A stretch of DNA of 20,000 nucleotides from an uncultured virus (IMG/VR IMGVR_UViG_3300008255_000131) (IMGVR_UViG_3300008255_000131), one strand, 5' to 3'. Shown: positions 2,225 to 18,849, counted from the first letter of the stretch. The notes: generated from the sequence alone by a model not told the origin. Numbers and translations are program-made.

Positions 2225-2300
2225 TAGTCCGCCCATCCAGATTTGAACTGGTTTTCATGCTTTATAAGAACATTGAGGAAACCGATTCCTCCCTGGGCGG
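2225..2300 (-). tRNA. tRNA-Ile(UAU), non-canonical, copy 1
   Basis: CCGCCCA GG GAGGAA TCGGT TTCCTC A ATGTT CT-TAT-AA AGCAT GAAAA CCAG TTCAAAT CTGG A TGGGCGG A CTA. Perfect 7-bp acceptor stem, 7-nt anticodon loop, TTC T-loop. Confidence 0.85.
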
Positions 2301-2305
2301 TTGAT

Positions 2306-2800
2306 TCAGAATTGGTTTTTTGAAATTCCAAAATCTATAAGCTTGTAGTGTCCTCTTGAATTTTTTCCCCAATGCCTGTTTTCATATACATCCCCATATA
2401 GATTTAACTTTTTAATTATGGCATTTATTTCTTTATTTAAAGGCATTCCTTTGGTTGGGTGAATATACTCAACTTCAATCCATTTCGTAAGTCGGTTTTT
2501 TGTATCCCAATCATAAATATCGGGCAAAAATTTATGATCATTATTCAGCCAGGTTCTTACTTCTTTTCTATTTTGAGCAATGTAATTGTATTTTTCTGGC
2601 TGCCATTCAATCTTTAAAACAAAAGGTTCGTAACCTTCAAGGTTTATAAGATAAGCTTTGCGAGTACATCCCCATCCAAGGTATGTTGCATAATTGTCAA
2701 GAAACATTGAAGCATCTTGGCAGTTTCCATTTTCAATAGCCCTTAAAAGCTTTGAATAAGAATTTCTGTTTATTTGCCTTGGATGGGGATGTGCTTTCAT
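2306..2800 (-). CDS. minimal protein-kinase-like protein (164 aa)
   Basis: Ordered PKL motifs: YLGWGCTRKAY (Gly loop), FVLKI (Lys), QNRKE (helix C Glu), GDVYENRHWG (catalytic loop), LIDFG. Confidence 0.75.
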   Translation of the reverse strand: MKAHPHPRQINRNSYSKLLRAIENGNCQDASMFLDNYATYLGWGCTRKAYLINLEGYEPFVLKIEWQPEKYNYIAQNRKEVRTWLNNDHKFLPDIYDWDTKNRLTKWIEVEYIHPTKGMPLNKEINAIIKKLNLYGDVYENRHWGKNSRGHYKLIDFGISKNQF

Positions 2801-2813
2801 ATCCTATTTTCCT

Positions 2814-3131
2814 TTACTTGTTTTTTTTGGCCATTTCTTTGGCATGGATCTTTTCTAGCCGATCCAAAAAGGTAAATGGGACAGTTTTCCCAAGGCATAA
2901 ATCTCCAAGATTGCCATATAAGGTGTTGTATGCCATGCTTGCAAAATACTTGTCCTTCTTTTGCATATAAGAAACAAATCCTGGCCGCCTTTTTTGACTT
3001 TTGTTCTTTTTAGGATTATTCCTTACAAGCGGATCGATTGGAGATAAGTCAAATCCCAAATCTTTGCCCATTTCGAGGATAAGCTTTTTGTTTTTAGGGG
3101 AGCCGGTTCGTGAAAATGATAGGTTATTCAT
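2814..3131 (-). CDS. basic hypothetical protein (105 aa)
   Basis: ORF in the co-oriented gene run. Confidence 0.6.
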   Translation of the reverse strand: MNNLSFSRTGSPKNKKLILEMGKDLGFDLSPIDPLVRNNPKKNKSQKRRPGFVSYMQKKDKYFASMAYNTLYGNLGDLCLGKTVPFTFLDRLEKIHAKEMAKKNK

Positions 3132-3211
3132 TGTTGTGTTTTCTTTCTTTCTTTTTTTTTACCAATGTTTTGGTAAAACTTTTCTTTTTCCAAAGAATCT
3201 TAGAATTTTTG

Positions 3212-3397
3212 TTAAAAGGCTAATCTCAAAGCGTTTGCAGTTTCCTTCTGGATTTGAGTCTCTGCACGTGCGAAACGATATTGGTCCGCCCCAAGAATTT
3301 GCTCAGAAATTTTCTGGGTGGCTACATCTAAATGCAGCTTGTTGACCCGGATACTCAGCACGAAAAACCTCATGCTTACACCATGGGCAATACGCAT
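3212..3397 (-). CDS. hypothetical protein (61 aa; start uncertain)
   Basis: Co-oriented ORF; no motif recognised. Confidence 0.4.
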   Translation of the reverse strand: MRIAHGVSMRFFVLSIRVNKLHLDVATQKISEQILGADQYRFARAETQIQKETANALRLAF

Positions 3398-3437
3398 TTA
3401 TTACATTTAGTGACACTTTGTCATCTGGCATAATAAA

Positions 3438-3959
3438 CTATTTCTTTACCGTGAATGCCGCAGCTTCTTTGCGGAAGAGTGATGCAATTGCAAGATCTCC
3501 AATCTCTTCTGCGCTGTCAGCCATTACAAGCATATTATCAATTTCGGACTTTGGCAGCGTCTGAGTCCAATTTGGCAAACGTTGAAAATCAACATCCTCG
3601 CTATAATAACCATTTGACTCACCCAGCCAACGGATTGTTACATAGCCCTTTGCTGTAGCAAATTTGTAAAAAGTCCATGTATATGACGAATGTTCTAGTT
3701 TGGGACCTTCTGAGTTGCTAATTTCTTCAGCCATCATAAATGGAGAATCTACAAGATCATCAAGGTCACCAATGATTTCTTCAATTTCGACATTTTCGCA
3801 ACAATCTTGCCGATGAAAAAACTTATAAGCCGTACCATCCGACAAATGAATTAGTAATTCATCACCATGGTTTTCAATATTGACTGCCTTTCTTCCAATT
3901 AGGATCGAAATATCTGCGTCGTTATAATAATCGTAAGGTTTATGTGGCAAAATATTCAT
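3438..3959 (-). CDS. conserved phage protein (QDCCE family, possibly DUF7448)
   Basis: H.QDCCE.V.IE.I.GDL.DL..SP...AEE, SYTWTFYKFAT.KGYVTIRWLGESNGYYSE.V: widespread phage hypothetical family (recalled). Confidence 0.8.
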   Translation of the reverse strand: MNILPHKPYDYYNDADISILIGRKAVNIENHGDELLIHLSDGTAYKFFHRQDCCENVEIEEIIGDLDDLVDSPFMMAEEISNSEGPKLEHSSYTWTFYKFATAKGYVTIRWLGESNGYYSEDVDFQRLPNWTQTLPKSEIDNMLVMADSAEEIGDLAIASLFRKEAAAFTVKK

Positions 3960-4036
3960 GGCTATAAGAATTGAGTAAGTGCATTATGTTGTGTGCAAAT
4001 TGTCATAGAATTCGACATCACGCACAAGAAACTTTA

Positions 4037-4108
4037 TAGGGCCACCAGGATTCGAACCTGGAATATGGGTTTAGAAGACCCGTGTGATATCCCTTTCACC
4101 ATGACCCC
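4037..4108 (-). tRNA. tRNA-Arg(UCU)
   Basis: GGGGTCA TG GTGA AAGGGATA TCAC A CGGGT CT-TCT-AA ACCCA TATT CCAGG TTCGAAT CCTGG TGGCCCT A. Canonical cloverleaf; no encoded CCA. Confidence 0.92.
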
Positions 4109-4113
4109 GTATT

Positions 4114-4266
4114 TTACTTTTTAGGATTGCATCTCAAGCAAGTCGCATATTCGGTTGTTGGTGAAGTAGGCACAAGATGATGAACACCTCTAAGAACAAG
4201 ACCACAGCGGGTACGTGGCTCTAAAGGCCCGATGGGCTTTCTTGTATCTGGTTGGTGAGTCTTCAT
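4114..4266 (-). CDS. Cys/His microprotein (50 aa), putative Zn finger
   Basis: Not in the ORF track. MKTHQPDTRKPIGPLEPRTRCGLVLRGVHHLVPTSPTTEYATCLRCNPKK. GAGG Shine-Dalgarno and its own promoter upstream. Confidence 0.6.
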   Translation of the reverse strand: MKTHQPDTRKPIGPLEPRTRCGLVLRGVHHLVPTSPTTEYATCLRCNPKK

Positions 4267-4286
4267 CTCTTTGCCTCTTCTCTTTT

Positions 4287-4314
4287 AGTATACCCACCAA
4301 AGGAAGAATGTCAA
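4287..4314 (-). promoter_or_regulatory. sigma70-type promoter (microprotein + tRNA-Arg)
   Basis: TTGACA-16-TATACT, 20 nt before ATG 4266. Confidence 0.75.
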
Positions 4315-4320
4315 GAGATT

Positions 4321-4975
4321 TTAGAGCCACTTCGAGCCAGGAGTTTCCATTTCGATCAAAATCTGAACAATGTTTTCTGCAAAATCTGTCAAAAACTTAT
4401 CGCTGGCCTTGGAACTTGCATAAAGCCTCATAGCATGATTTATGATTTGATACAGAATAAAATTGTCATAATTACTATAACTAATAGCATTAAAAATAGA
4501 TCGGCCTATAGAAACGATGTGAGTATTTGCGCAAGACCAGCTAAAATTGCTAGAATGACAAATTGTAAGGGCCGCCTTTTTGGCTTCATTAGTGGTTTTT
4601 GCATTTTTGCACTCTTCGGCACATTCGGTCATTTGAGCGGCCAGGAGTAATGGCGGCAAAACTTTGTTAGTCGCCATTAGTATAACGCGTTTCACAAAGT
4701 CTTTATCATCGAAATCCTCTACGGTTCCCAATTGGGCCACAGCAAGCCGGCGCAATCCAGCCGCACGAGCCTGTGAGCTGCTCCAGAGTTCATCTTTTTA
4801 GTCGACAAACGGACGAAGAAACACACTGTGGATTGTCGCTATGGGGCAAATTGAGCGCGTAGCAAACAGCGGCTTCAACGCACATCTTACCAGGAATGGG
4901 CTTTCCGAGCCCAGGAACAAGACCAGCATCAACGGTTTCGTAAATCTTTGAGACGAGATCTTGGTTGATTTCCAT
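4321..4975 (-). pseudogene. conserved phage hypothetical gene split by a frameshift near 4790-4797
   Basis: ORF 4790..4975 (...GKMCVEAAVCYALNLPHSDNPQCVSSSVCRLK) continues in a shifted frame as DELWSSSQARAAGLRRLAVAQLGT... into ORF 4321..4755, whose only track start is a TTG with no obvious RBS. Confidence 0.65.
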
Positions 4976-4981
4976 GAGAAG

Positions 4982-5010
4982 AATGTAGGTCCGACTAAGG
5001 CAACTGTCAA
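4982..5010 (-). promoter_or_regulatory. sigma70-type promoter, leaderless
   Basis: TTGACA-17-TACATT-6 nt-ATG(4975). Confidence 0.75.
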
Positions 5011-5011
5011 G

Positions 5012-5239
5012 CTAGACTTTCTTAAATCTTTCAGGAAAGAATGATCCAGCTCTCACCTTTCCTTGATCGTCTTTAATTACAAGAAGATTGGTGTTTAGAC
5101 TTGAAACCACTTTTACAACTTCAAAAATTGAATTTTTTGTGATGATGGCGTGGAACGGCGGATGCATGCATTCAATTAATGTTCCAGGATTTCCTAAAAG
5201 TTTAGTTGCAATTCTATTGCATATTTTTTCTAGTTTCAT
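5012..5239 (-). CDS. paralog family member 1 (MxLxxIC...PG..EC...RFxK; putative SH3-like)
   Basis: MKLEKICNRIATKLLGNPGTLIECM...FFPERFKKV. Confidence 0.85.
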   Translation of the reverse strand: MKLEKICNRIATKLLGNPGTLIECMHPPFHAIITKNSIFEVVKVVSSLNTNLLVIKDDQGKVRAGSFFPERFKKV

Positions 5240-5241
5240 TT

Positions 5242-5472
5242 TTAGATCTTTATAAATCTTTCGGGCAAAAAATTTCCTATCAATTTTCCATCCATTGCAA
5301 CTTGAAGAAGATGTGTATTTTCTTCTTTAAGTGTTTTTATTACATTAAATATGCAATTTTTTGATCCTTTTCCATTGGGCATTGCAAGAGAAGGATGAAT
5401 GCATCTGACGCGCGTTCCCGGATTTCCTAAAATTTCAGCCCCAATTTTATTGCATATTGTTTCTAAATCCAT
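5242..5472 (-). CDS. paralog family member 2
   Basis: MDLETICNKIGAEILGNPGTRVRCI...FLPERFIKI. Confidence 0.85.
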   Translation of the reverse strand: MDLETICNKIGAEILGNPGTRVRCIHPSLAMPNGKGSKNCIFNVIKTLKEENTHLLQVAMDGKLIGNFLPERFIKI

Positions 5473-5542
5473 TTTGTTATTCCTATCATTTGTGACGCTT
5501 TATTCTAATTGATCTAGACGCCAATTTATTCCGTCTTTATTT

Positions 5543-6055
5543 TCATTTGATTTTAAATCCCATTTCAATCATTGACAATAATGCTTCGGCATTGCCTTTT
5601 GCATCGTCTACAGGATGGTGAGTATGTTTTGTTTTGCGTAAATGTTTGAAGTTTTTTCTCATATCCTTGACGAATCCTTTGTATAGGCTTCCAAGATTTG
5701 TGCTCGAATGGCCAAAAGGATTTGTTCCGCAAAACTTATGAAAATAGTAATTGAAAAATTGCCAATCAAACCCATTATTATCCGATATGAATCGGGGATT
5801 AGGAAACATTGAAACCCAGCTATAAAAATCTTTCATTGTTTCTTCCGGCATTAGAAAATTCATGCACTCGTCACGAGAAAAACCAGAAACACTAAGCGCT
5901 TCTGGAACCCAGTTATCTGAAATTGGACGACATTTTCCATAAAAAGTATGATCAAGCTTTGGTTCTACAACGACAGCACCAAAACTTGTCATACTATAAA
6001 GGCCAGGACAAGGCCCATCAGTTTCTGCATCTGTCATAATCCATGTTATATTCAT
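5543..6055 (-). CDS. DEDDh 3'-5' exonuclease (RNase AS/Rv2179c-like)
   Basis: ExoI DAETDG, ExoII NNGFD, ExoIII HHPVDDA. Start set at ATG 6055 (MNITWIM), just after the upstream stop. Confidence 0.85.
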   Translation of the reverse strand: MNITWIMTDAETDGPCPGLYSMTSFGAVVVEPKLDHTFYGKCRPISDNWVPEALSVSGFSRDECMNFLMPEETMKDFYSWVSMFPNPRFISDNNGFDWQFFNYYFHKFCGTNPFGHSSTNLGSLYKGFVKDMRKNFKHLRKTKHTHHPVDDAKGNAEALLSMIEMGFKIK

Positions 6056-6059
6056 TTTA

Positions 6060-6473
6060 TTACTCTTCCTCTTCTTCCTGCATTTCGATCCAAGGACCAA
6101 GTATTTCTTTTATTGCTTCACTTGCTTCACTTGCTTCTTTTTCGATTCGTTCTTTTCCTTTTTTATCATAAGAAAAGGCAATGTGTGCATTTGAAAGAAA
6201 ATTCAACAAGGTATCTTTTAAATCATAAAGAGATTCGGCATCATTAATTCCTTCAATGAGAACATCAATTGAATCTTTTGCATTTTCTAAATCTTCTTCA
6301 TTACATGCCTCTTTTTCAATAAGGTCGCTTAGCTTAAAGCCCATATTCTTAATTTTGATTGCTGTGCCAAAGTTGCCATCAGAAGATTCATAAACTTCAG
6401 AAAAAGAAGTAAATAAATCTTCTAGGTTGTCAGATGCGATGGCATTTTCAATTTCTTTGATTTGATTGTTCAT
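6060..6473 (-). CDS. highly acidic hypothetical protein (137 aa)
   Basis: Co-oriented ORF, D/E-rich, ending EEEEE. Confidence 0.7.
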   Translation of the reverse strand: MNNQIKEIENAIASDNLEDLFTSFSEVYESSDGNFGTAIKIKNMGFKLSDLIEKEACNEEDLENAKDSIDVLIEGINDAESLYDLKDTLLNFLSNAHIAFSYDKKGKERIEKEASEASEAIKEILGPWIEMQEEEEE

Positions 6474-6616
6474 TTTCTCTGCTTTGTTTCATTTAATAAT
6501 TTTTCAAGCCTGGCTTTGCATAACAAATATTCAATTTGCCATCTAAATAAAGGCTCATGGTCACCATAATCAGTAAGACGATGCTCAAGCTCGGATACGT
6601 TATTGGGCTTGGCCAT
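6470..6616 (-). CDS. hypothetical microprotein (48 aa)
   Basis: Not in the ORF track. MAKPNNVSELEHRLTDYGDHEPLFRWQIEYLLCKARLEKLLNETKQRK. Fills the gap; ATGA overlap with the next gene. Confidence 0.55.
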   Translation of the reverse strand: MAKPNNVSELEHRLTDYGDHEPLFRWQIEYLLCKARLEKLLNETKQRK

Positions 6617-6622
6617 GATCTT

Positions 6623-6994
6623 TTATTTTGTCTGAGAAATTTCTTTTTTAAGGCATGAACTTGGATATGCTTGATCTTCTAAGCATCTAGTAGCAACACG
6701 TGCCTCAATAAGTTCACATTTGTCAAGCCCAAGTGACTCAACGCAAGATAGCCAAGCATCTTCGTAGATTATATGTTGCTGCCGTGCGTCTTCTTCCTTT
6801 TTTTGTTTGTTTTTATGACAATAAGGAATGGTGGCAACGATTCCAAAGATAGTCACCAAAGCAAAAGCAAGCAAACTAAACCCTTTAAAAAAGAGACCAA
6901 TCAAATGCCTTCTTTCTCTTTTGTCTCTTTCTTTTGATTCTTTTTGCAGTTTTTGCCATTCGCCAACTTCTTTGATAATATCTTCGTCATTCAT
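6623..6994 (-). CDS. single-TM membrane protein with Cys-containing C-terminal domain
   Basis: Hydrophobic segment FSLLAFALVTIFGIVATIP followed by several Cys. Confidence 0.7.
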   Translation of the reverse strand: MNDEDIIKEVGEWQKLQKESKERDKRERRHLIGLFFKGFSLLAFALVTIFGIVATIPYCHKNKQKKEEDARQQHIIYEDAWLSCVESLGLDKCELIEARVATRCLEDQAYPSSCLKKEISQTK

Positions 6995-6997
6995 ATT

Positions 6998-7330
6998 TTA
7001 TTCGTCCCATTTTTCTGGAAGTTGAGAATTTTGCAACAAGCACCATAATGCAGCAATCCACTGTGTAGAAAAGCCGCCAAATGTCGTTCCGCCACCAAAA
7101 AAGTAATATCTAGAGTTCCAAGAATTTTCATTTGGAACAAATTCCAACCTTCCGATCAATTTGTCATCAATGTTTCTGTAAATTAGAAACCAATCTGCCA
7201 AATAAGCATATCCATCAGGTTCTTGCTTTTCAAGTCTAAATCCGTGCTCGATCACTTTGGAACTAAAATGATCTTTTCCATAGCATTTGTAATGATCGCT
7301 AATCTCTGTTAGAATTTTTGAAGTATCCAT
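6998..7330 (-). CDS. hypothetical protein (110 aa)
   Basis: Co-oriented ORF with 2-3 nt spacing to its neighbours. Confidence 0.7.
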   Translation of the reverse strand: MDTSKILTEISDHYKCYGKDHFSSKVIEHGFRLEKQEPDGYAYLADWFLIYRNIDDKLIGRLEFVPNENSWNSRYYFFGGGTTFGGFSTQWIAALWCLLQNSQLPEKWDE

Positions 7331-7332
7331 TT

Positions 7333-8046: not shown

Positions 8047-8047
8047 A

Positions 8048-8428: not shown

Positions 8429-8445
8429 TTTATTCCTTTTTATTT

Positions 8446-8622: not shown

Positions 8623-8650
8623 TAAAATAGCAACTTAGATGCAGAGCAAT

Positions 8651-9520: not shown

Positions 9521-9564
9521 TTTTGTTTCCTTTGGGTTAAAGGTCGAGATTAGACTTCATCTCC

Positions 9565-9592: not shown

Positions 9593-9602
9593 GTGGCAAG
9601 GA

Positions 9603-10082
9603 TTATCTATTGTACCAGCAAATGTGCGTGGCATCTTTTGGAATTGAGTCTACTGATGAAGGATATATTTTTATGGAAGGATTTATTTTACCATTTTTCA
9701 CAGGGTTTCCATAGCCATCATAATCTATTAATCCCCCTGCTTTTACGTCATTTAAAAATTCTTCTATTGTAAGAAGACAATCATCTTCCGAAACTTCTTC
9801 AGAATAAGGAGACATATTCATTTCAACAATTTTAATAATTTCTTCTTCTTTATATCCTTGTTCTTTTAGAATTCTTTCAAGTTTTGGACTTTTTGATTTA
9901 ATCAGTTCGATATTAATATTTTCTTCACCCCAAATCCCAATAATATTTGAAATATAATCCAAAACATCTCTTGAAGAACGGTTTATTTCTGGATTTGTAG
10001 GATTAAAACCATCTGCTACAATATCTGGATGAGCGCTTACTTTGAAAGCAATTGTCCATATATAATAATTTCTTTTTGCCAT
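9603..10082 (-). CDS. hypothetical protein with C-terminal phage IDYDG...THxxWxN domain
   Basis: TIEEF...GGLIDYDGYG...IYPS...P..ATHICWYNR; TAATG-coupled to the upstream paralog. Confidence 0.7.
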   Translation of the reverse strand: MAKRNYYIWTIAFKVSAHPDIVADGFNPTNPEINRSSRDVLDYISNIIGIWGEENINIELIKSKSPKLERILKEQGYKEEEIIKIVEMNMSPYSEEVSEDDCLLTIEEFLNDVKAGGLIDYDGYGNPVKNGKINPSIKIYPSSVDSIPKDATHICWYNR

Positions 10083-10318
10083 TATTTTTCTATCTTTCTA
10101 AATCTTCTTGGAAAGAATCTATAGTTTACAATCTTAGAATCTTTTTTAATTGTTGTCAGCATGTTTCCAAAAGGTCCATGCTCTTGAGAAATTACTTCAA
10201 AAATTTCCCCTTCTTCTATATTTGTACCATAAATTTCTTTATTATCCATGCATTCGACCAAATCTCCTGGTTTCAGGAGACTTGCTGCCAACTGGTCACA
10301 TATATAATCAAGTTTCAT
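10082..10318 (-). CDS. paralog family member 3
   Basis: MKLDYICDQLAASLLKPGDLVECM...FFPRRFRKI. Confidence 0.85.
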   Translation of the reverse strand: MKLDYICDQLAASLLKPGDLVECMDNKEIYGTNIEEGEIFEVISQEHGPFGNMLTTIKKDSKIVNYRFFPRRFRKIEK

Positions 10319-10550
10319 TGTTTACTTTTCTAAATCTTGTAGAATAAAAACTAGAATTCACAATAGTTTTTCCATTTAATTCCTTAACAAGAAGAGTACC
10401 TGGCATGTAATTTTGTACAATCTCATATAGGTTTCCTTTTGAAAGAAACCCACCCTCACTTAAGTCGCAATCTGGATTCATACATTCAACAATTGTTCCA
10501 GGTATAAAGATTTTATTTGTAACATAATTGCATATATATTGAAGATTCAT
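10308..10550 (-). CDS. paralog family member 4
   Basis: MNLQYICNYVTNKIFIPGTIVECM...FYSTRFRKV. Confidence 0.85.
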   Translation of the reverse strand: MNLQYICNYVTNKIFIPGTIVECMNPDCDLSEGGFLSKGNLYEIVQNYMPGTLLVKELNGKTIVNSSFYSTRFRKVNNET

Positions 10551-10777
10551 TATGAGTCTACTTTTCTAAATCTGGTTGCAGCATAGCTGAAATTTTTAAT
10601 ACCTTCAAGGAATATTTCTATAGGAATATTTCCTACTATTCTATGTTTTGAAATTGTATAAACCTTTCCTTTGACCAAGTTTTTAAGCATGTCTGCTTCA
10701 TTATTCATGCATTCCACAGTATCTCCTGGTTTTAGGACTTTCGCTGCAATGTCATAACATATATCTTGAAGATTCAC
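10550..10777 (-). CDS. paralog family member 5 (GTG start)
   Basis: MNLQDICYDIAAKVLKPGDTVECM...YAATRFRKV; GTGA overlap. Confidence 0.85.
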   Translation of the reverse strand: MNLQDICYDIAAKVLKPGDTVECMNNEADMLKNLVKGKVYTISKHRIVGNIPIEIFLEGIKNFSYAATRFRKVDS

Positions 10778-10983
10778 AGATCTGCTTTCCTGAATCTGGT
10801 TGGAAAAAATGTATTTGGATATCCTTTAATCATAATTCTGTCACTTAAATGGAAAGATTTAATCTTATATAAAACACTTTTTTTCAGAATGTGGGAACGA
10901 TAGTCGGCGTTCATGCACTCTACGATCATCCCAGGCATTAATGCTTTTGCTGCAACTTTATAACATATTTCTTGAAGTTTCAT
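10774..10983 (-). CDS. paralog family member 6
   Basis: MKLQEICYKVAAKALMPGMIVECM...FFPTRFRKADL. Confidence 0.85.
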   Translation of the reverse strand: MKLQEICYKVAAKALMPGMIVECMNADYRSHILKKSVLYKIKSFHLSDRIMIKGYPNTFFPTRFRKADL

Positions 10984-11222
10984 GGGTCAACCTTTCTAAA
11001 TCTACTGGGACTAAAAGTATAGTTGATTTTATAATCTTCTTTTTTAATCTTAAGAAGGCAGTTTCCAAATAGGCCAAGTTCCTGAGATACTATTTTAAAT
11101 ATTTCTCCTTTTTTTATACCTGGGCATCTGTTATTCAAGAATTTGTCATCCATGCATTCAACCTTGACGCCAGGTTTAAGAATGTTGCATATAACCTTTT
11201 CACATATATAATTTAAATTCAT
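10980..11222 (-). CDS. paralog family member 7
   Basis: MNLNYICEKVICNILKPGVKVECM...FSPSRFRKV. Confidence 0.85.
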   Translation of the reverse strand: MNLNYICEKVICNILKPGVKVECMDDKFLNNRCPGIKKGEIFKIVSQELGLFGNCLLKIKKEDYKINYTFSPSRFRKVDP

Positions 11223-11460
11223 AAATCTGCTTTTCTAAATCTTGTTGGGAAAAAACTTCTTTTCATTTCGTTATTATTTAATTCTAATTCCTCAACAAAG
11301 GAACTGTCAAAAACACATGAACCTTTTCTGTGATTTGGTAAATATATCCTTTTTTTAAGACTGATTCATGACCGCAATTGTCCATACATTCGACCATATC
11401 GCCCACCTTAAATGCTTTTGAAGCAATGTTAAGGCAAATATTTCGGAGTGTTTTTTTCAT
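11219..11460 (-). pseudogene. paralog family member 8, frameshifted near 11305-11320
   Basis: Not in the ORF track. MKKTLRNICLNIASKAFKVGDMVECMDNCGHESVLKKGYIYQITEKVHVF, then in the -1 frame DSSFVEELELNNNEMKRSFFPTRFRKADL*. ATGA overlaps at both ends. Confidence 0.8.
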
Positions 11461-12797
11461 TTCATCAAATTCCTAGATACGATCTCTGATAGAATGCGAA
11501 GCTGATTGTTTTCATGCTCATTGTCGCCATCTCCACCGTACTTATGCGCAACTTCATGAACAAGCGTTTGAATCAATTCGGTTTTGTTGGTCAAGACTTT
11601 TCTTGCGATATTGATTTGGAAATCAGAAATACTTTTCTTTGCGCTTCCCTTAATTGTTTCTCCAACAAAATCAACAATTGATACAATGTCTAAACTCAAC
11701 CATTTTTCAACGGATTGAACAAGGCAAAAGGCTTGATTTAGGTTGGTTTTTTCTTCGGCTGTAAGATCAGGCCAACCATAAATTTCTTTAATGATGAGCG
11801 CGGTTTCATTTAGGCGTTCATCAAGTTTTCCTGCATGCTTTTCAATAATATTTTGAACGGCCTTGCTGACAGTTATTCCCTTTTTACCAAAATGCTCAAC
11901 GCGTTGACTGTCTCCAATTGAAGTAACCGGAATGGCAGTTTCTCCATATTTCTTGATGAAGTTTTCCGAGATAAGTTTATGGAAGTTTCCATTATACCCA
12001 TAAAAGGCCGAATATTGAAATGCGCGAGATTCGCCCGAAGCTTCGTTTTCAAGAACAGAAAGAACCTCCTCAACTCCAAAAAGGCTTTTTTCCGTTGCTT
12101 CCATAATAAGGTTCTGGACGGTGCTCTGTAGAACCCAAGGGTTCGCTACTTCACGATCTCGATTAAGTTCAATGTTTAGATTATATCCAAAATTGTAGTT
12201 GTCAGGCATTTGACAAACATAAATGCCTTTGACAAACAAATTGTTTTGATATTTTGGATCCAAAAGAATTGTTCCACTATTCAAAGAAATTCGCTTGTCG
12301 GTTTTGTCTCCAAAAAACAGCAGCCTTTCCTGGTAAGACTTCCAATCTTCTGGCGTTACTCCTTTGACTTCGACAATAAAGTCATTAATGGCTTTTGGCT
12401 GTTGGCGAATGTCAATTACTAAAACTTCCAAGCCGCTATCGTTGGTAACATGCTTGGCAATCCAAGTCTCAGATCCTGTTCGAATCCATACTTCATGTCC
12501 AAAATTGAGCAAAGCGTTGATACCAACGACCAACCCCTCGCCATGCTGACCACGGGCGCTGGCGTCATTGCGCTTGCTGGAGAAGCCAAGAACAAGCGCG
12601 TCACGTGAGAGCGTAACTCCTTCATTCTTTACACGGAGAGCCCAATCCGCGGCCTTCTTATGTTCTACGGTCATATAGTGGCCTTTGTCATGGCCATCAA
12701 GAGCGTTTTGAAGAATCTCACGAATACCTGACCAGGCTGAATTAAACCCGGCAGTCAAGGCATATTCTTTTGCAATGTTTGTTTGGTAAATGGTCAT
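11457..12797 (-). CDS. GHKL (HSP90/MORC-like) ATPase fused to a C-terminal HEXXH zincin-like domain (446 aa)
   Basis: N box REILQNALD, G1-like VKNEG, G2 GFSSK..RGQHGEGL..G; C-terminal LVHEVAHKYGGDGDNEH. Confidence 0.85.
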   Translation of the reverse strand: MTIYQTNIAKEYALTAGFNSAWSGIREILQNALDGHDKGHYMTVEHKKAADWALRVKNEGVTLSRDALVLGFSSKRNDASARGQHGEGLVVGINALLNFGHEVWIRTGSETWIAKHVTNDSGLEVLVIDIRQQPKAINDFIVEVKGVTPEDWKSYQERLLFFGDKTDKRISLNSGTILLDPKYQNNLFVKGIYVCQMPDNYNFGYNLNIELNRDREVANPWVLQSTVQNLIMEATEKSLFGVEEVLSVLENEASGESRAFQYSAFYGYNGNFHKLISENFIKKYGETAIPVTSIGDSQRVEHFGKKGITVSKAVQNIIEKHAGKLDERLNETALIIKEIYGWPDLTAEEKTNLNQAFCLVQSVEKWLSLDIVSIVDFVGETIKGSAKKSISDFQINIARKVLTNKTELIQTLVHEVAHKYGGDGDNEHENNQLRILSEIVSRNLMK

Positions 12798-12806
12798 TAC
12801 AAAGGG

Positions 12807-12835
12807 AGGCTAGCATGAAGAGATAGCTTATGCAA
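12807..12835 (-). promoter_or_regulatory. sigma70-type promoter (extended -10)
   Basis: TTGCAT-17-TAGCCT with TGn; 9 nt to ATG 12797; no SD. Confidence 0.5.
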
Positions 12836-12841
12836 GCTTTT

Positions 12842-13081
12842 TTATTCGCAGAATTTTTTAAATTTTGAAAGTCCAAGGGGCAGAAGCTCGATCTCCTGAT
12901 TATTTAAATCGGCTTTAATAAGAACTGTGCCAATGTCCCCAATAGCCCTGAAAGATTTAGCTCTGAATAAATTTCCTATTTTAAAAAGTCCAAGATTAGA
13001 TCTTTCTATGCATTGAATAATTGTTCCTGGTTCTTTCAATGCATTAAAATGGAGTTTGTCGCATATATTTTGTAATTTCAT
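12842..13081 (-). CDS. paralog family member 9
   Basis: MKLQNICDKLHFNALKEPGTIIQCI...SKFKKF. Confidence 0.8.
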   Translation of the reverse strand: MKLQNICDKLHFNALKEPGTIIQCIERSNLGLFKIGNLFRAKSFRAIGDIGTVLIKADLNNQEIELLPLGLSKFKKFCE

Positions 13082-13082
13082 T

Positions 13083-13274
13083 TTAATATTTTTCCAATTT
13101 CATAAAATTAGAAACACCTTCTTCTTTGAATATTTGAAGAGTCTCAGTGAGAAACCTCGTATTATCGTCAGAAGAAGTAACTTCATAAATTTCTCCAATT
13201 CCAACATTGAATAACAGTCCAAGAGCTTTCAATGCGTTGAAGTGCAAATTGTCACATATTTCTTGAAGTTTCAT
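13083..13274 (-). pseudogene. paralog family member 10, degenerate (local frameshift plus deletion, divergent C-terminus)
   Basis: MKLQEICDNLHFNALK is intact. The family motif TVIQC is present out of frame (ACT GTT ATT CAA TGT), and there is no RFxK end. Confidence 0.65.
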
Positions 13275-13509
13275 ATGTTTGTTTCTTGCAATAAATTAAA
13301 AGAGCAGATTCTTCACTTTTTGCTCGAATTCGAAGCCATTCGTTCCATTCCAAAAGTTCAAGCATTTTATTTAGCTTCCTCGCGCCAGGATCCTCAATAA
13401 CGCAAAAGTCTTCATTGCAAAGATGAAAAACAATGTAATTGCTTCCTTCTGCAATCATTTGATCGTGTTCTGCGCCGGATAGTCCCGTGAAAAATGGTTG
13501 CTCGTCCAT
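13252..13509 (-). CDS. hypothetical protein (85 aa)
   Basis: ORF starting 6 nt after a -10 box. Confidence 0.65.
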   Translation of the reverse strand: MDEQPFFTGLSGAEHDQMIAEGSNYIVFHLCNEDFCVIEDPGARKLNKMLELLEWNEWLRIRAKSEESALLIYCKKQTYETSRNM

Positions 13510-13515
13510 TATGTA

Positions 13516-13544
13516 AGCTTAATCACCTGAAGACTGGTTGTCAA
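13516..13544 (-). promoter_or_regulatory. sigma70-type promoter, leaderless
   Basis: TTGACA-17-TAAGCT-6 nt-ATG(13509). Confidence 0.75.
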
Positions 13545-13753
13545 CCTACTTTTTTAAATCTCGTTGGAATAAAACTAAATCCTCCAAATCCTTTTATAAA
13601 GATTTCTTTAGCGGTAGAATTTTTTGATGTAATTTCATAAAAATCACCTTCTTTTATGGTAGATGCAGAAAATTTGGAAAATATACACTCTACTACATCT
13701 CCTGGTTTTAGCGCGTCAAATGCGATATTCTGACATATTTCAGAAAGTTTCAT
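13541..13753 (-). CDS. paralog family member 11
   Basis: MKLSEICQNIAFDALKPGDVVECI...FIPTRFKKV. Confidence 0.85.
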   Translation of the reverse strand: MKLSEICQNIAFDALKPGDVVECIFSKFSASTIKEGDFYEITSKNSTAKEIFIKGFGGFSFIPTRFKKVG

Positions 13754-13986
13754 TTTTGTCCTCGTGTTGCAATTTTAAATCTTTCAGCAAAAAATCCGCC
13801 ATGAAACTTTGTGCCGTCTTCACATTTTATTTCTAAATATTTGCCGGCACTGTTTTTTATTTCTCCCAAAACTTCATAAATTTTTCCTTTGTCAAAAGAA
13901 AAATAATCCTCGACACTCTCAATCAATAATCCGGGCTTGCTCAATGCATTATGATGCAATGAATCGCATATTTGTTGAAGTTTCAT
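13750..13986 (-). CDS. paralog family member 12
   Basis: MKLQQICDSLHHNALSKPGLLIESV...FFAERFKIA. Confidence 0.85.
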   Translation of the reverse strand: MKLQQICDSLHHNALSKPGLLIESVEDYFSFDKGKIYEVLGEIKNSAGKYLEIKCEDGTKFHGGFFAERFKIATRGQK

Positions 13987-14213
13987 TTGTCGCCTGCTAT
14001 TTTAAATCTTGAAGGGAAAAATCCACCAAAATGCCCCCAACCAATCTCATTTTTGTTTTTTAAATATATAAATGTATTGTTTGAAAAGGCAACTTCGTAA
14101 ACCTTATTCTTTTCTAAAGAATTAGCAAATGGGTCGATGCACTCAACCAAAGTCCCGGATTTCGATATTGTATTAATATGTAGTTTGTGACATATACCAA
14201 ATAAACTTGCCAT
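13983..14213 (-). CDS. paralog family member 13
   Basis: Start corrected to ATG 14213: MASLFGICHKLHINTISKSGTLVECI...FFPSRFKIA. Confidence 0.8.
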   Translation of the reverse strand: MASLFGICHKLHINTISKSGTLVECIDPFANSLEKNKVYEVAFSNNTFIYLKNKNEIGWGHFGGFFPSRFKIAGDK

Positions 14214-14220
14214 ACAAGAT

Positions 14221-14249
14221 ATAATGCCATAAAAAGAGACAGGTGTCAA
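14221..14249 (-). promoter_or_regulatory. sigma70-type promoter, leaderless
   Basis: TTGACA-17-CATTAT (TGn extended)-7 nt-ATG(14213). Confidence 0.55.
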
Positions 14250-14250
14250 G

Positions 14251-14292
14251 AAAAATGCCCGCCAATAGGGCACGAATGCCGAAGGGCGGGCA
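14251..14292 (-). terminator. intrinsic terminator-like hairpin with internal loop
   Basis: TGCCCGCC-cttc-GGCA-TTCG-TGCC-ctatt-GGCGGGCA-TTTTT. Confidence 0.6.
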
Positions 14293-14410
14293 GGATTGAT
14301 CTTTTTCAAGATCGATGGCCAAATTTGGCCGGATTAAACATTTGCTGGTTCTGGAGCTTCTTAAATATTTTCAAAAACTAGAAAATCTGAAGACAATGCA
14401 TAAATATTGA

Positions 14411-14542
14411 TTAGTATTTTGGAGAACCCAAAGCTCCCAAAGCTGCAAGAAAATAAATGGCTCTCAAACGACTAGAATTCTTTCCAAGTGAGCGTTGCTC
14501 CCTCTTTTTTTCTTCTTCTTCCACCTTCTTTTCAGGAGTCAT
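14411..14542 (-). CDS. microprotein (43 aa) with hydrophobic C-terminus
   Basis: Not in the ORF track. MTPEKKVEEEEKKREQRSLGKNSSRLRAIYFLAALGALGSPKY; ATGA-coupled to the upstream gene. Confidence 0.5.
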   Translation of the reverse strand: MTPEKKVEEEEKKREQRSLGKNSSRLRAIYFLAALGALGSPKY

Positions 14543-14706
14543 TTGTTCAAATTTTTTTCAAGAGCAATTTTCTCTTTTTCGATGCAAGAATGACAACGCC
14601 ACCCTTTTGATTCTCGCTTCCATCCCTGGCCAAGCGCAACATTTCCGCGACTTGGGCCGTTGGATTCGCATTTGTGGCATTTGGCTGGAATCTTTGACTG
14701 TCCCAT
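14539..14706 (-). CDS. Zn-ribbon microprotein (55 aa)
   Basis: Not in the ORF track. MGQSKIPAKCHKCESNGPSRGNVALGQGWKRESKGWRCHSCIEKEKIALEKNLNK (CxxC...GW...W.CxxC). ATG lies 6 nt after a perfect TATAAT. Confidence 0.75.
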   Translation of the reverse strand: MGQSKIPAKCHKCESNGPSRGNVALGQGWKRESKGWRCHSCIEKEKIALEKNLNK

Positions 14707-14712
14707 GAATGC

Positions 14713-14740
14713 ATTATAGCCATGTTCCCGTTGCTGTCAA
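14713..14740 (-). promoter_or_regulatory. perfect-consensus sigma70 promoter, leaderless
   Basis: TTGACA-16-TATAAT-6 nt-ATG(14706). Confidence 0.85.
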
Positions 14741-14769
14741 GTTCAAAAGCCAAGATTGAGACCGATTAA

Positions 14770-15003
14770 TTATCCTTGAGCTATTCTAAATCTTGTTGCT
14801 TTAAAACGTCTTCTTTCGCCACAATCATTCCTGACTACAATGCAACCTGTTGGTTTATCCTTTCCAATAACCTTGTAGAATTTTCCTTCACTAATCGTTT
14901 TAGATGGATAAGAATCTTTGTTGTTCATACATTCAACAATCGTCTCGTCTTCACCAAGATGATCAGACGCAATTTTTTCACATATTTCAAATAGATATCT
15001 CAT
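14770..15003 (-). CDS. paralog family member 14
   Basis: MRYLFEICEKIASDHLGEDETIVECM...EGKFYKV...FKATRFRIA. Confidence 0.85.
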   Translation of the reverse strand: MRYLFEICEKIASDHLGEDETIVECMNNKDSYPSKTISEGKFYKVIGKDKPTGCIVVRNDCGERRRFKATRFRIAQG

Positions 15004-15008
15004 AAGCT

Positions 15009-15203
15009 CTAAACCTTGAGAAAAACATGGATTATGTTCAAAACTATGCTTGTCATTGTAAATAATATAATCCCTAAAACCATTGATACTCTGGCTACAA
15101 AAGGAAATCCCTTTGCACCAGGCTTCAAATTAAAGGCAGAAATTGCTATAAGCATTGAACAAGCACAGATCATTAATAAAGTTGCCCATGTGATAAGTCC
15201 CAT
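15009..15203 (-). CDS. small two-TM membrane protein (64 aa)
   Basis: Two hydrophobic helices separated by KPGAKG. Confidence 0.7.
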   Translation of the reverse strand: MGLITWATLLMICACSMLIAISAFNLKPGAKGFPFVARVSMVLGIILFTMTSIVLNIIHVFLKV

Positions 15204-15211
15204 ACAAAACC

Positions 15212-15240
15212 ATGGTAGACAATTTTGGCTTGCATTGCAA
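15212..15240 (-). promoter_or_regulatory. sigma70-type promoter, near-leaderless
   Basis: TTGCAA-17-TACCAT-8 nt-ATG(15203). Confidence 0.55.
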
Positions 15241-15245
15241 GAAGA

Positions 15246-15647
15246 CTATTCATAGTGATCAGAAAATTTACTATCTTTTGAAAAGAAATCGTCGTTTTGT
15301 TCTCCTTCAATGTTTGAGCCTTTTCTCCATGTTTGATGATTTTCTGAAATCCATTCTTTTATGTAACATTCTATATAATATTCAATGTCGTCAGGAACCT
15401 CGACGACATGAACTCCACTTGATGATATTTTTTCTCCAAGCTCATCAAAAACCTGCAATAAGATTTCATCATTTCTAGGAACATCATGGTGAACAAAAAA
15501 ATTTTTATCCAAATTAAATTCTTTATATTCTGGATCGTTAATGGGCATAAATTCTTCAGAAGCCCAGCTTGCTCCAAGTTCTCTAGCTCGCAAAACGGCA
15601 GCTCGTGTCAAAGAGAGATTGTAAAATCCTGAAATTAAAAGGCGCAT
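15246..15647 (-). CDS. conserved phage hypothetical protein (133 aa)
   Basis: PRND..L.QV..ELG...S......VVEVPDDIEYYI....EWI.E.H.TW, a pattern recalled from a common phage family. Confidence 0.75.
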   Translation of the reverse strand: MRLLISGFYNLSLTRAAVLRARELGASWASEEFMPINDPEYKEFNLDKNFFVHHDVPRNDEILLQVFDELGEKISSSGVHVVEVPDDIEYYIECYIKEWISENHQTWRKGSNIEGEQNDDFFSKDSKFSDHYE

Positions 15648-15711
15648 GATTTATGCAATTGACCACAAAATCTTTGTTCTGTCAAGGGTTGAAAAATTTA
15701 TGGCTAGCATA

Positions 15712-15740
15712 TTGACTTATATTAGCTTTCGTCCTATACT
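15712..15740 (+). promoter_or_regulatory. sigma70-type promoter, leaderless, divergent
   Basis: TTGACT-17-TATACT-7 nt-ATG(15748). Confidence 0.75.
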
Positions 15741-15747
15741 TAGGTCT

Positions 15748-15921
15748 ATGTCTAAGAACAAGCCAATGAACGCTGAGCGACGCATCAGGGCTCGCTCCAA
15801 GCCAACTAAAGTCCGCGACCTGAATGCTCTTGCACTCATTTTGAGCCGCAAGGGCGGCCATCATGGTGATAAGAAGAAGGAGCAAGCTAGGAAATCTTGC
15901 CGGGAAGGGTGGCCGTCATGA
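15748..15921 (+). CDS. small basic protein (57 aa)
   Basis: Start corrected to ATG 15748: MSKNKPMNAERRIRARSKPTKVRDLNALALILSRKGGHHGDKKKEQARKSCREGWPS. Has its own promoter and terminator. Confidence 0.7.
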   Translation: MSKNKPMNAERRIRARSKPTKVRDLNALALILSRKGGHHGDKKKEQARKSCREGWPS

Positions 15922-16011
15922 GCGACGATCTGGTGGCACGATGGTTTTTCAAGTGCATGGACAAGAAAATATTCAGCGGCGACTTATTAACTAATAACTC
16001 ATAGATTCAAG

Positions 16012-16040
16012 AAAAAAGGGCGGATTAACCGCCCTTTTTT
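16012..16040. terminator. bidirectional intrinsic terminator
   Basis: AAAAAAGGGCGG-attaa-CCGCCCTTTTTT between convergent genes. Confidence 0.9.
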
Positions 16041-16698
16041 AGTTTAGATCATCACAAGACAAAGGCAGCTCGGTTGGGAGGGTGCCATCGATTTTGATTG
16101 CTGCAAAAGTTGCAAAAATCGGATCAAAATCGGATGGGCTTGGACTTTCCATGACATTGGTTACGAATCCCCAAGAACTAGAGCCGCAAAATGAAGATAG
16201 CTGAAAACTTCCATCAAGAATTATTGCAAGAAGAAGATCCGATCCATCAACAGGGTTTGACTTTCCTGCAATTGTCACAACTCCAGTTTCGTCTCCTGGG
16301 TTCAAGGTAAATTCTCCATTCACATGAGGAATATTACTATAAACCCAAGGATCTCCAATCAAAGTTCGAGGAGAAGTGATTGAACCTACATCAAGAGCAA
16401 GTGGCTGGAACGAGAAACTAACAAAATCTTCGTCCATACTCACGCTTACAATAAATTGCACCGGAAGTTCTGGGTCTAGATCTGCGGATTCTTGATATGG
16501 ATCAACAACTTCCATTGACAAGGTTAGGAGATAGTCTCCATCATGGAAATTAAAATCTCCGTCACCGTCACCGGCGGTTTCGCTTTCGTCAGAAGTGGAG
16601 GTTGAAGTATCATCGCCATCAACGCCAGGGCTTGCATCGTCAGCGCAAGCAAGGGACATGAGGAGGATTGCAGGGAGAAACTTGATTGCGTTCTTCAT
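16039..16698 (-). CDS. myxobacterial-type lipoprotein (219 aa)
   Basis: Signal peptide with lipobox (MSLA-C), S/T/D linker ending GDGDGD, then a beta-rich domain with two Cys. Confidence 0.8.
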   Translation of the reverse strand: MKNAIKFLPAILLMSLACADDASPGVDGDDTSTSTSDESETAGDGDGDFNFHDGDYLLTLSMEVVDPYQESADLDPELPVQFIVSVSMDEDFVSFSFQPLALDVGSITSPRTLIGDPWVYSNIPHVNGEFTLNPGDETGVVTIAGKSNPVDGSDLLLAIILDGSFQLSSFCGSSSWGFVTNVMESPSPSDFDPIFATFAAIKIDGTLPTELPLSCDDLN

Positions 16699-16704
16699 GG
16701 TTTC

Positions 16705-16732
16705 ATTATAAGGCCGTCATCAAAGATGGCAA
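16705..16732 (-). promoter_or_regulatory. sigma70-type promoter, leaderless
   Basis: TTGCCA-16-TATAAT-6 nt-ATG(16698). Confidence 0.8.
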
Positions 16733-16775
16733 CCCTTCTTTCGATCTTTTTTTTGTCGTTGCCCTGCAAGATTAT

Positions 16776-17015
16776 TCAATCATAATCATTTTTAAGAATG
16801 GCAATATATTCTTCTTTTGGAATGGCATGAATTCTTGCCGTCACCTTGTCTTTTGGAATCTCATCATACATTTTATTGAGCGCATCACCATACCTTTCAT
16901 AAGTAATTGCATCATCAATATTTTCTGACCAATCCGATCCATTCCAAAATTTTTGATTTGGAGGTTGTGCGCAAAGAAGAACTAAGATAAAATTTTGTTG
17001 TTCAAAAGTTTTCAT
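16776..17015 (-). CDS. hypothetical protein (79 aa)
   Basis: Co-oriented ORF; FWNGSDWSENIDDA motif. Confidence 0.7.
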   Translation of the reverse strand: MKTFEQQNFILVLLCAQPPNQKFWNGSDWSENIDDAITYERYGDALNKMYDEIPKDKVTARIHAIPKEEYIAILKNDYD

Positions 17016-17018
17016 TTA

Positions 17019-17462
17019 TTACCCGTGAGCATTTACCGCAGCAACAATTTCATAACTTAGTTTTGGAATATCGAAATCTTCATCTTGTTCTTTTTGTTCA
17101 GTTACAGCATCAAGCAGCTCTGAGCCCATCCAAGTTGCAAGATCGTGCCAAGCAACAAGCTTGTGAGAACAAGGATCTTCAATAAGTGTTACCGAACTTT
17201 CGATCCAATGATGGCCAACGCGAACAATAATATTTGCATAAAATCCATTTGAAATATTTCCGTCGTCGTCGTCAACATCTCCAGTTCCAAGATATTTTAC
17301 ACTTAAAACATGGACGTTTTGATTAGCAATTTCTTGGGCTTCGTCGGCAGGAATCCATTTCCCATCAACCCAGCAAAAGAGAGAGCCATCTTGACCAACG
17401 TCAAATGCTCCCATTGCGCACGAGAAAGAAATTTTTTCAAGATTTTTGATATTAATATTCAT
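17019..17462 (-). CDS. acidic hypothetical protein (147 aa)
   Basis: AAGGAG SD upstream. Confidence 0.75.
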   Translation of the reverse strand: MNINIKNLEKISFSCAMGAFDVGQDGSLFCWVDGKWIPADEAQEIANQNVHVLSVKYLGTGDVDDDDGNISNGFYANIIVRVGHHWIESSVTLIEDPCSHKLVAWHDLATWMGSELLDAVTEQKEQDEDFDIPKLSYEIVAAVNAHG

Positions 17463-17504
17463 TTTGTAATAACTCCTTATAAGGCGATAGTTGGTCGTTC
17501 CGGC

Positions 17505-17819
17505 TCAGGCAAATCCAAGCTTGGGTGCATTTTTATTTATATTGGTCTTTAGTTTTAATCCCAAAATGCAACAATTTTTATCTAGGGCAAGACTTGAAAG
17601 GGCACATGGAGTGTCCCTTGACGTAATATATGTGATCTCGGCTTCTAGTTCTTCTCCGGTGTACTTTCCAAGAAAAGGATCGTATTCACGCAATTTGACA
17701 ATTTCTCCAACGCAGAAATTCCGATCGCTCATGTCACGAAGATCATAAGGCTTGGTTCCATTTTTTATTGCTTGAAAAAAGACAGGCCAGCTTTTCAATT
17801 CATTTTTTATATTTTTCAT
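17505..17819 (-). CDS. DUF3850 / ASCH-like (PUA-fold) protein
   Basis: ELKSWP.FFQAI..G.K.YDLR...DRNF.VG....LRE......YTG......ITYI. Confidence 0.85.
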   Translation of the reverse strand: MKNIKNELKSWPVFFQAIKNGTKPYDLRDMSDRNFCVGEIVKLREYDPFLGKYTGEELEAEITYITSRDTPCALSSLALDKNCCILGLKLKTNINKNAPKLGFA

Positions 17820-17967
17820 TTTGTTGTGTTCTTTTTATATAGTTTTCATATTCTTCTTCTACTATCTTTTCAAGAATTGATCGATTATCATATTTTTTAT
17901 CCGCTGCCAAGACAATAATAAAGAATGTTAATGCAAATCCGGTTAGAAACCCAAATAAAAATGTCAT
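17800..17967 (-). CDS. small N-anchored membrane protein (55 aa)
   Basis: Not in the ORF track. MTFLFGFLTGFALTFFIIVLAADKKYDNRSILEKIVEEEYENYIKRTQQNEKYKK. ATG is 1 nt after the tRNA's CTA end. Confidence 0.6.
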   Translation of the reverse strand: MTFLFGFLTGFALTFFIIVLAADKKYDNRSILEKIVEEEYENYIKRTQQNEKYKK

Positions 17968-17968
17968 T

Positions 17969-18044
17969 TAGTCCGCCCATCCAGAATTGAACTGGTTTTC
18001 ATGCTTTATAAGAACATTGAGGAGACCGCCTCCTCCCTAGGCGG
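17969..18044 (-). tRNA. tRNA-Ile(UAU), non-canonical, copy 2
   Basis: CCGCCTA GG GAGGAG GCGGT CTCCTC A ATGTT CT-TAT-AA AGCAT GAAAA CCAG TTCAATT CTGG A TGGGCGG A CTA; 71/76 identical to copy 1. Confidence 0.85.
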
Positions 18045-18052
18045 GGAAACTA

Positions 18053-18829: not shown

Positions 18830-18849
18830 TGTGTTTCCCTTTCCCTTTC

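Follow-up and report, generated by a model that had tools for sequence, protein, structure and literature searches.

A putative phage tRNA-Ile(UAU) with an atypical core and a predicted six-base-pair D-stem, present in several copies

Transfer RNAs that read AUA through a UAU anticodon, without lysidine, have been described in two cellular systems, as tRNA-Ile(UAU) of Mycoplasma mobile and as the G34U tRNA-Ile1 suppressor of tilS-less Bacillus subtilis, and both are reportedly ordinary cloverleaves. U34 is unmodified in both cases, and misreading of AUG is low in B. subtilis (PMC3575796, PMC3919564). With regard to tRNA structure, a review (PMC7609411), in which the word "phage" occurs 0 times, gives 3–5 bp for most D-stems and sets the selenocysteine tRNA (tRNA-Sec) apart by a 6-bp D-stem with a 4-base loop and by an open core that lacks tertiary contacts of positions 8 and 9 as well as the canonical contacts between the variable arm and the D-arm. 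Natural departures from the standard cloverleaf are also found among the allo-tRNAs of bacteria and phages in metagenomes, which standard gene finders miss or under-score (PMC5389517). Our literature search turned up no phage tRNA of the architecture described below, a result that does not show the architecture to be unpublished. Here we describe an atypical tRNA-Ile(UAU) encoded twice in a 20,000-nt stretch of DNA from an uncultured virus (IMG/VR IMGVR_UViG_3300008255_000131; the whole stretch is referred to as the window). We propose that the two copies are probably working elongator tRNA genes that decode AUA and belong with the many tRNA genes of a jumbo phage of ~320 kb.

Both copies lie on the minus strand, copy 1 from 2300 to 2225 and copy 2 from 18044 to 17969, and each comprises 73 nt followed by the trailer CTA. 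Their positions and the number of differences between them, 5 over 76 positions, were as described in the sequence-only reading that preceded this analysis; the differing positions are 6 C/T, 15 A/G, 16 T/G, 21 T/C, and 59 A/T. A repeat finder returned them as a single 77-nt family (2224-2300 and 17968-18044, 94% identity) in which the similarity stops at the tRNA borders, and a 41-nt degenerate pattern of the unit matched twice in the window, compared with 0.00 matches expected from 200 shuffles. The cloverleaf features fit a class I elongator tRNA, with a 7-bp acceptor stem, a 5-bp anticodon stem, a 7-nt anticodon loop, and G18G19. The anticodon loop is CTTATAA (RNA CUUAUAA) in both copies, with U33, A37, and A38 around UAU; the T-loop is TTCAAAT in copy 1 and TTCAATT in copy 2 (UUCAAWU); the variable loop has 4-5 nt; and A73, preceding CTA, and C4-G69 are present. 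The core, by comparison with the conserved class I core (U8, A14, A21, and R15-Y48), has G8, A14, U21, and R15 facing A48. G8 and G9, read directly from the sequence, follow the acceptor stem in both copies, and the D-arm is GAGGAA-TCGGT-TTCCTC in copy 1 and GAGGAG-GCGGT-CTCCTC in copy 2. The T-stem consists of four pairs and an A49·A65 mismatch, and the C6-to-T change in the acceptor stem of copy 2 keeps its pair as a U6·G67 wobble. The minimum free energy (MFE) fold of either copy is a cloverleaf with a 6-bp D-stem and a 5-nt loop containing GG (-26.8 kcal/mol for copy 1 and -26.0 kcal/mol for copy 2), and the two extra D-stem pairs, 14-22 and 15-21 by unit position (14-21 and 15-20a in the other numbering used here), have pair probabilities of 0.81-0.98. 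Thus, G8, the long D-arm with its 5-nt loop, the incomplete T-stem, the CTA end, and the wobble, all of which had been noted earlier, were borne out by the sequence and the MFE fold.

Gene finders, to which the earlier reading had looked for support, gave it in part. In short-region scans, the Rfam tRNA model RF00005 (gathering score, 29 bits) scored copy 1 at 42.1 bits and copy 2 at 36.1 bits, and for both copies RF00005, not the tRNA-Sec model RF01852, was the best within the clan. ARAGORN called copy 1 as tRNA-Ile(tat) at 2227-2300, but it missed copy 2, and a permissive Rfam scan of the whole window reported neither copy. Copy 2 was also not reported in a 171-nt Rfam scan around it, a miss that we attribute to the Rfam speed filters. 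A covariance model built from the atypical tRNA itself (model R1) scored the copies at 105.8 and 106.8 bits, respectively. By the curated model, the units are tRNAs, though they are low-scoring and easy to overlook.

A third variant (var3) was found at 19923-19998 of G002, a 23-kb IMG/VR contig (CheckV, 7% complete), and identically at 4976-5051 of L035, a 33-kb metagenome contig, where it lies inside an array of 14-15 tRNAs and a transfer-messenger RNA (tmRNA). It was the one true relative returned by a D-arm pattern search of the IMG/VR viral contigs, and it was missed by ARAGORN and by the Rfam gathering scan. A scan of metagenome contigs returned three stretches, namely var3 on G002, var3 on L035, and the window's own DNA on L036, which is 100% identical to 15208-20000 of the window (4,793 nt) and contains copy 2 unchanged. 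The proteins of G002 are 29-79% identical to those of the tRNA-array region of G001, which places G002 in the same phage group; G001 (IMGVR_UViG_3300015050_001523; 322,518 bp, CheckV 93% complete) is an IMG/VR contig and the nearest relative of the window. A pattern scan of 185,579 species genomes (one for each species) gave seven stretches, all of them chance matches without a tRNA, and a filter-free search with model R1 in four more distant phage tRNA arrays gave no further member, nor did model R1 over G002 and L035 or one more scan of the viral contigs. The collection of homologs thus yielded a third variant whose differences all fit the cloverleaf, but none beyond the three variants of one phage lineage among the viral contigs, metagenome contigs, and species genomes searched. 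The tmRNA of the var3 array lies at 5830-6189 of L035 (and equally on G002), scores 132.8 bits with Rfam, and encodes the tag peptide ANDSVYGGEVLALAA as predicted by ARAGORN. A var3-like stretch forms the end of a 4,669-nt contig of run X1, and var3 itself occurs on a 339-nt contig of run X3, which hints that var3 and the window may come from one phage; run X1 is possibly the source of the window itself and was therefore not counted as independent.

Compared with copy 2, var3 has three changes: C2 to T, giving a U·G pair; A49 to G, with position 49 still mismatched; and G67 to A, which converts U6·G67 to U6-A67. All eight positions that vary among the three variants are compatible with the cloverleaf. 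Pair 6-67 passes from C-G through U·G to U-A, pair 15-21 (15-20a) from A-U to G-C, and pair 2-71 from C-G to U·G, while positions 16 and 59 lie in loops and position 49 lies within the mismatch; the CUUAUAA loop is unchanged in all three. In the three-row alignment, 66 of 69 cells pair, the only unpaired position being 49·65, and two pairs (6-67 and 15-21) change on both sides. When random substitutions were simulated on copy 1, all 22 pairs were kept in 4.1% of trials with five changes and in 0.6% with eight. We regard these observations as fair evidence that the cloverleaf is under constraint, the simulation not being a covariation test of the D-stem. They also bear on the possibility that the units are pseudo-tRNAs, that is, decaying and functionless duplicates of a phage tRNA gene. 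Decay would be in keeping with the low covariance-model scores, the misses by ARAGORN and the Rfam filters, the noncanonical position 8, the T-stem mismatch, and the absence of the unit from the closest complete relative. However, the three loci are 93-97% alike although their flanks share nothing, none of the eight variable positions breaks a pair (the simulated chance of which is the 0.6% given above), the functional loops are invariant, and one of the copies is retained within a dense tRNA array. We therefore consider pseudo-tRNAs very unlikely. The CTAA that follows A73 is identical in all three variants, though the remaining flanks differ entirely, and could either signal 3' processing or be left over from the duplication of the unit.

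Next to the three-variant comparison, the D-stem itself admits a second interpretation, namely that the tRNA-Ile(UAU) is functional but the 6-bp stem is an artefact of prediction, so that the molecule would keep the usual 4-bp stem and a 9-nt loop (A14 R15 K16 C17 G18 G19 U20 Y20a U21) and tolerate G8 and U21. Rfam aligns both copies to a 4-bp model and still awards them the scores given above, G18G19 stand at their normal places, and the single double change, at the sixth D-stem pair, supports 15-20a, pair 14-21 being invariant. Two extra pairs can also be drawn elsewhere: among the 37 evaluable tRNAs of G001, the D-stem can be extended by no pair in 32, by one pair in 1, and by two pairs in 4; however, three of these four depend on a stem in which 3 of 4 positions match, and the loop of the fourth would shrink to 3 nt. 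The change of R15 from A to G was accompanied by a change of 20a from U to C while A48 stayed fixed, as expected if position 15 pairs with 20a and not with 48. Moreover, U21, G8, and A48 facing R15 would jointly remove the 8-14-21 and 15-48 contacts, and the extra pairs would restore stability; their pair probabilities are high. We judge the chance that the 6-bp D-stem is real to be somewhat better than even, in which case the tRNA would forgo its usual 8-14 and 15-48 tertiary contacts; the 4-bp alternative, which concerns structure only, appears possible, though we do not favor it.

The departure at position 8 is not shared by other phage tRNAs that we compared. Of the 38 tRNAs of G001, 35 have U8 and 3 have A8; of 46 further full-length phage tRNAs (one partial hit was left out), 45 have U8 and 1 has A8, giving U in 80, A in 4, and G in none of 84. 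On the earlier description of the units as tRNA-like genes that carry a UAU anticodon on an atypical core, our analysis agrees. The atypical tRNA resembles tRNA-Sec (RF01852) in its predicted 6-bp D-stem, its short D-loop ending in GGU, and the non-U residue at position 8; in two clostridial tRNA-Sec genes that we compared, an 8-bp acceptor stem is followed by A8 and by a 6-bp D-stem closed by the 4-nt loop UGGU. However, the acceptor/T branch of tRNA-Sec spans 13 bp (8/5 in bacteria), its variable arm is long, and its anticodon is UCA, whereas the atypical tRNA has a 7/5 branch with one mismatch, a 4-5-nt variable loop, the anticodon UAU, and a 5-nt D-loop. It is thus not a tRNA-Sec, although it shares the predicted D-arm style. 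Similarly, it recalls the allo-tRNAs in departing naturally from the standard cloverleaf and in escaping or scoring poorly with standard finders, but in the allo-tRNAs the acceptor/T branch is altered (8/4 or 9/3) and the variable arm is long (PMC5389517), whereas here the branch is standard and the D-arm and core are altered. What is unusual is a class I elongator tRNA without U8, with a predicted tRNA-Sec-like 6-bp D-stem, in several copies and under apparent structural constraint.

Comparison with G001 separated what is ordinary in its phage group from what is not. G001 has 38 tRNAs over the Rfam cut-off, and ARAGORN called 37, including two tRNA-Ile(tat), one tRNA-Ile(gat), and two tRNA-Arg(tct). 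Its canonical tRNA-Ile(UAU) genes, at 99614-99688 and 115379-115451, score 65.3 and 71.9 bits with RF00005; AUA decoders thus exist in multiple copies in the phage group. The atypical tRNA is like these genes in its CUUAUAA loop, A73, a C-rich acceptor stem (CCGCCYA compared with CCTCCTA), the lack of an encoded CCA, and its repeated occurrence in one genome, at separate sites between phage genes of the same strand; its acceptor stem with A73 also resembles that of tRNA-Ile(GAU) of G001 (CCAACCA/A73). In contrast, the canonical genes score 65-72 bits and the atypical tRNA 36-42 bits. The former combine U8, A14, and A21 with a D-stem of 4 bp, a variable loop of 5 nt, and a T-stem that is paired throughout; the latter combines G8 and U21 with two extra D-stem pairs, a variable loop of 4-5 nt, and the 49·65 mismatch. 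No BLAST-level likeness was detected between the two. Three claims of the sequence-only reading have to be revised in this light. CTA in place of CCA had been taken as special, but CCA is encoded after none of the 38 tRNAs of G001. UAU anticodons had been called rare, which holds for cells but not for this phage group with its two canonical genes. Decoding of AUA without TilS had been proposed as the mark of a new class, but any UAU tRNA would do so. Neither a TilS-type domain (PF01171) nor a CCA-enzyme domain (PF01743) was found in G001. What sets the atypical tRNA apart within the phage group is its core, not its UAU anticodon or its missing CCA.

Several other Ile or UAU-anticodon tRNAs of such phages are themselves uncommon. 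ARAGORN called a tRNA-Ile(aat) with the anticodon AAT at 43575-43647 of G001 (plus strand; RF00005, 56.1 bits), and an A34 anticodon for Ile is unusual in bacteria. In another phage array, a UAU tRNA at 1182-1270 of L074 combines U8 with a long variable arm and encodes its CCA (RF00005, 44.5 bits), and a further UAU tRNA, at 4974-5052 of L073 and called tRNA-Ile(tat) by ARAGORN, has A8 and scores 19.5 bits against tRNA-Sec. The AUA decoders of tRNA-rich phages may thus be structurally diverse.

A decoding role is consistent with codon usage. Over 38 minus-strand open reading frames (ORFs), ATA accounts for 76 of 383 Ile codons, or a fifth, and AGA for 59 of 182 Arg codons, which matches the two tRNA species present in the window; the second of these, and the only other tRNA there, is a canonical tRNA-Arg(UCU) on the minus strand at 4037..4108 (ARAGORN; RF00005, 57 bits). 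Phage tRNAs that supply A-ending codons are well known, and the function would thus be an ordinary one. We propose that the atypical tRNA would be transcribed together with the neighboring minus-strand genes in read-through transcripts and excised by the tRNA-processing enzymes of the host, and that, because CCA is not encoded, the host would add it. Isoleucyl-tRNA synthetase (IleRS) would then charge the tRNA, a step that would depend on the host, and the charged tRNA, with the two extra D-stem pairs presumably formed in the folded molecule, would read AUA without lysidine or TilS. In using UAU for AUA without lysidine, it would be like the tRNAs of M. mobile and B. subtilis; those tRNAs, however, are cellular and, in M. 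mobile, accompanied by an adapted IleRS, whereas this one is phage-borne, has an atypical core, and would be served by the IleRS of the host.

Several observations weigh against this proposal. The atypical tRNA was not found in G001, whether behind the homologs of the two upstream genes, by BLAST, or with model R1 over the whole contig, and its absence from the closest complete relative makes it dispensable in the phage group. ARAGORN misses two of the three variants and the default Rfam filters miss all three, and the tRNA scores lowest among the full-length tRNAs of the group, the 38 of G001 scoring 30-74 bits and most of them >50. The D-stem had been called covarying, and one double change at the sixth pair does stand; but it is one event among just three near-identical sequences of one phage lineage, the covariation measures of the three-row alignment were reached in 121 of 500 shuffle trials, and the D-arm changes at 15, 16, and 21 fall within 7 nt and could reflect one mutational event in a hairpin, not stepwise selection. 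The Ile identity elements named earlier, A73, C4-G69, and A37/A38, are present; however, the identity set outside the anticodon that Nureki et al. (1994) defined for Escherichia coli reportedly comprises A73, C4-G69, U12-A23, and C29-G41, and here the 12-23 and 29-41 pairs are G-C, so that this E. coli set is only partly present. Finally, expression, processing, and charging are predicted from sequence.

The surroundings of the three loci raise a further possibility, that of a tRNA-like element whose main role is not decoding. Copy 1 begins 5 nt downstream of the stop codon of a 164-aa phage gene of unknown function (2306..2800, minus strand; ORF list, phrog_4301), and copy 2 begins 8 nt downstream of the stop codon of a gene of the SprT-like zinc-protease family (18053..18829, minus strand; Pfam SprT-like, E-value 6.4e-09; phrog_6361). 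The two genes have homologs in G001 (41% and 70% identical, respectively), and no tRNA lies behind either homolog. On the other side, the ATG of a 55-aa ORF (17800..17967, minus strand; ORF list) without a family match lies 2 nt past the CTA of copy 2. An HNH endonuclease gene stands directly upstream of var3, at 1569-2120 of L038 (19991-20542 of G002, minus strand), and also occurs at 16361-17011 of L047 (phrog_35854, E-value 7.9e-32). The element could thus be a decoy or substitute substrate for a tRNA-targeting defense nuclease of the host, a processing signal punctuating polycistronic transcripts, or a target or passenger of movement driven by a homing endonuclease; its tight fit between genes, its spread to three unrelated sites with exact borders, and the position of var3 after the HNH gene are all compatible with such roles, and phage tRNAs that counter tRNA-cleaving defenses have been published (PMC11555353). 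However, the features that a decoder requires are preserved in the anticodon loop, T-loop, discriminator, and acceptor stem, AUA codons are frequent in the window, G001 meets the same need with two canonical tRNA-Ile(UAU) genes, and tight packing between genes is usual for phage tRNAs. In addition, we know of no nuclease that targets tRNA-Ile(UAU). Taken together, these points make a primarily nondecoding role unlikely. As for the evasion of host anticodon nucleases that the earlier reading had suggested, none of our results supports it.

The HNH endonuclease has a 77% identical homolog in G001, which is there followed by tRNA-Gln(ctg) and tRNA-Met(cat), and its placement may bear on the exchange of tRNA genes within arrays. 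A different origin of the paired copies, as repeats bounding an integrated element, was rejected: both copies are full length, there is no integrase among the 27 ORFs, and the genes between the copies and on both sides of them have homologs in G001. Counts of promoters and terminators were no higher than in shuffles, and the "terminator" matches were the D-arm hairpin itself.

The window is a fragment of a jumbo phage. It had no megablast match among the GenBank phages, but its 446-aa protein is 67% identical to a protein of G001, and G001 carries homologs of four window genes in unchanged order; we take these likenesses to mean that the window is a piece of such a phage. Almost all of the long ORFs are on the minus strand. 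Pfam named 5 of the 27 ORFs, and PHROG families were matched by 7 of 12 window proteins. The 446-aa protein (11457-12797, minus strand; HATPase_c, E-value 5.8e-4; SprT-like, E-value 1.4e-3; phrog_6077, E-value 7.3e-49) has a weakly GHKL ATPase-like N-terminus and a C-terminus with a weak SprT-like zinc motif; the SprT-like gene upstream of copy 2 is the clearer of the two. At least 12 paralogous ORFs of ~70-80 aa, often back to back on the minus strand, occupy 5012-5472, 10082-11222, 12842-14309, and 14770-15003; common to them are the motifs M-x-L-x-x-I-C at the N-terminus and RF+K at the C-terminus. These ORFs correspond to the DNA repeat families D1-D7 and D9, and no match was found for the one member searched against Pfam or the two searched against PHROGs. 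Between the homologs of the genes upstream of the two tRNA copies, the syntenic stretch of G001 is ~9 kb shorter than that of the window. Positions 1-699 of L036, a 5.5-kb metagenome contig, hold short inverted or duplicated pieces of 19827-19972 of the window, which looks like an assembly artefact at the contig end.

A more far-reaching version of the decoding proposal is that an elongator tRNA swapped the near-universal U8-A14-A21/R15-Y48 core for a tRNA-Sec-type long D-stem, and that up to three copies were kept because this core sets the molecule apart from host tRNAs, making it a naturally orthogonal AUA decoder. Such a tRNA might, for example, go unrecognized by host enzymes or defense nucleases for which the U8/D-loop core is the cue, or a phage factor might serve it. 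We regard this as rather unlikely and offer it as speculation.

For the tRNA-rich phages in general, the practical consequence concerns counting: as default Rfam filters and ARAGORN miss most copies of the atypical tRNA, the tRNA tallies for huge phages are likely to be underestimates. If the tRNA is charged and used, it would provide a natural test of how much of the conserved tRNA core is needed by IleRS, EF-Tu, the ribosome, and the processing enzymes, and it could offer a possible scaffold for engineered tRNAs.

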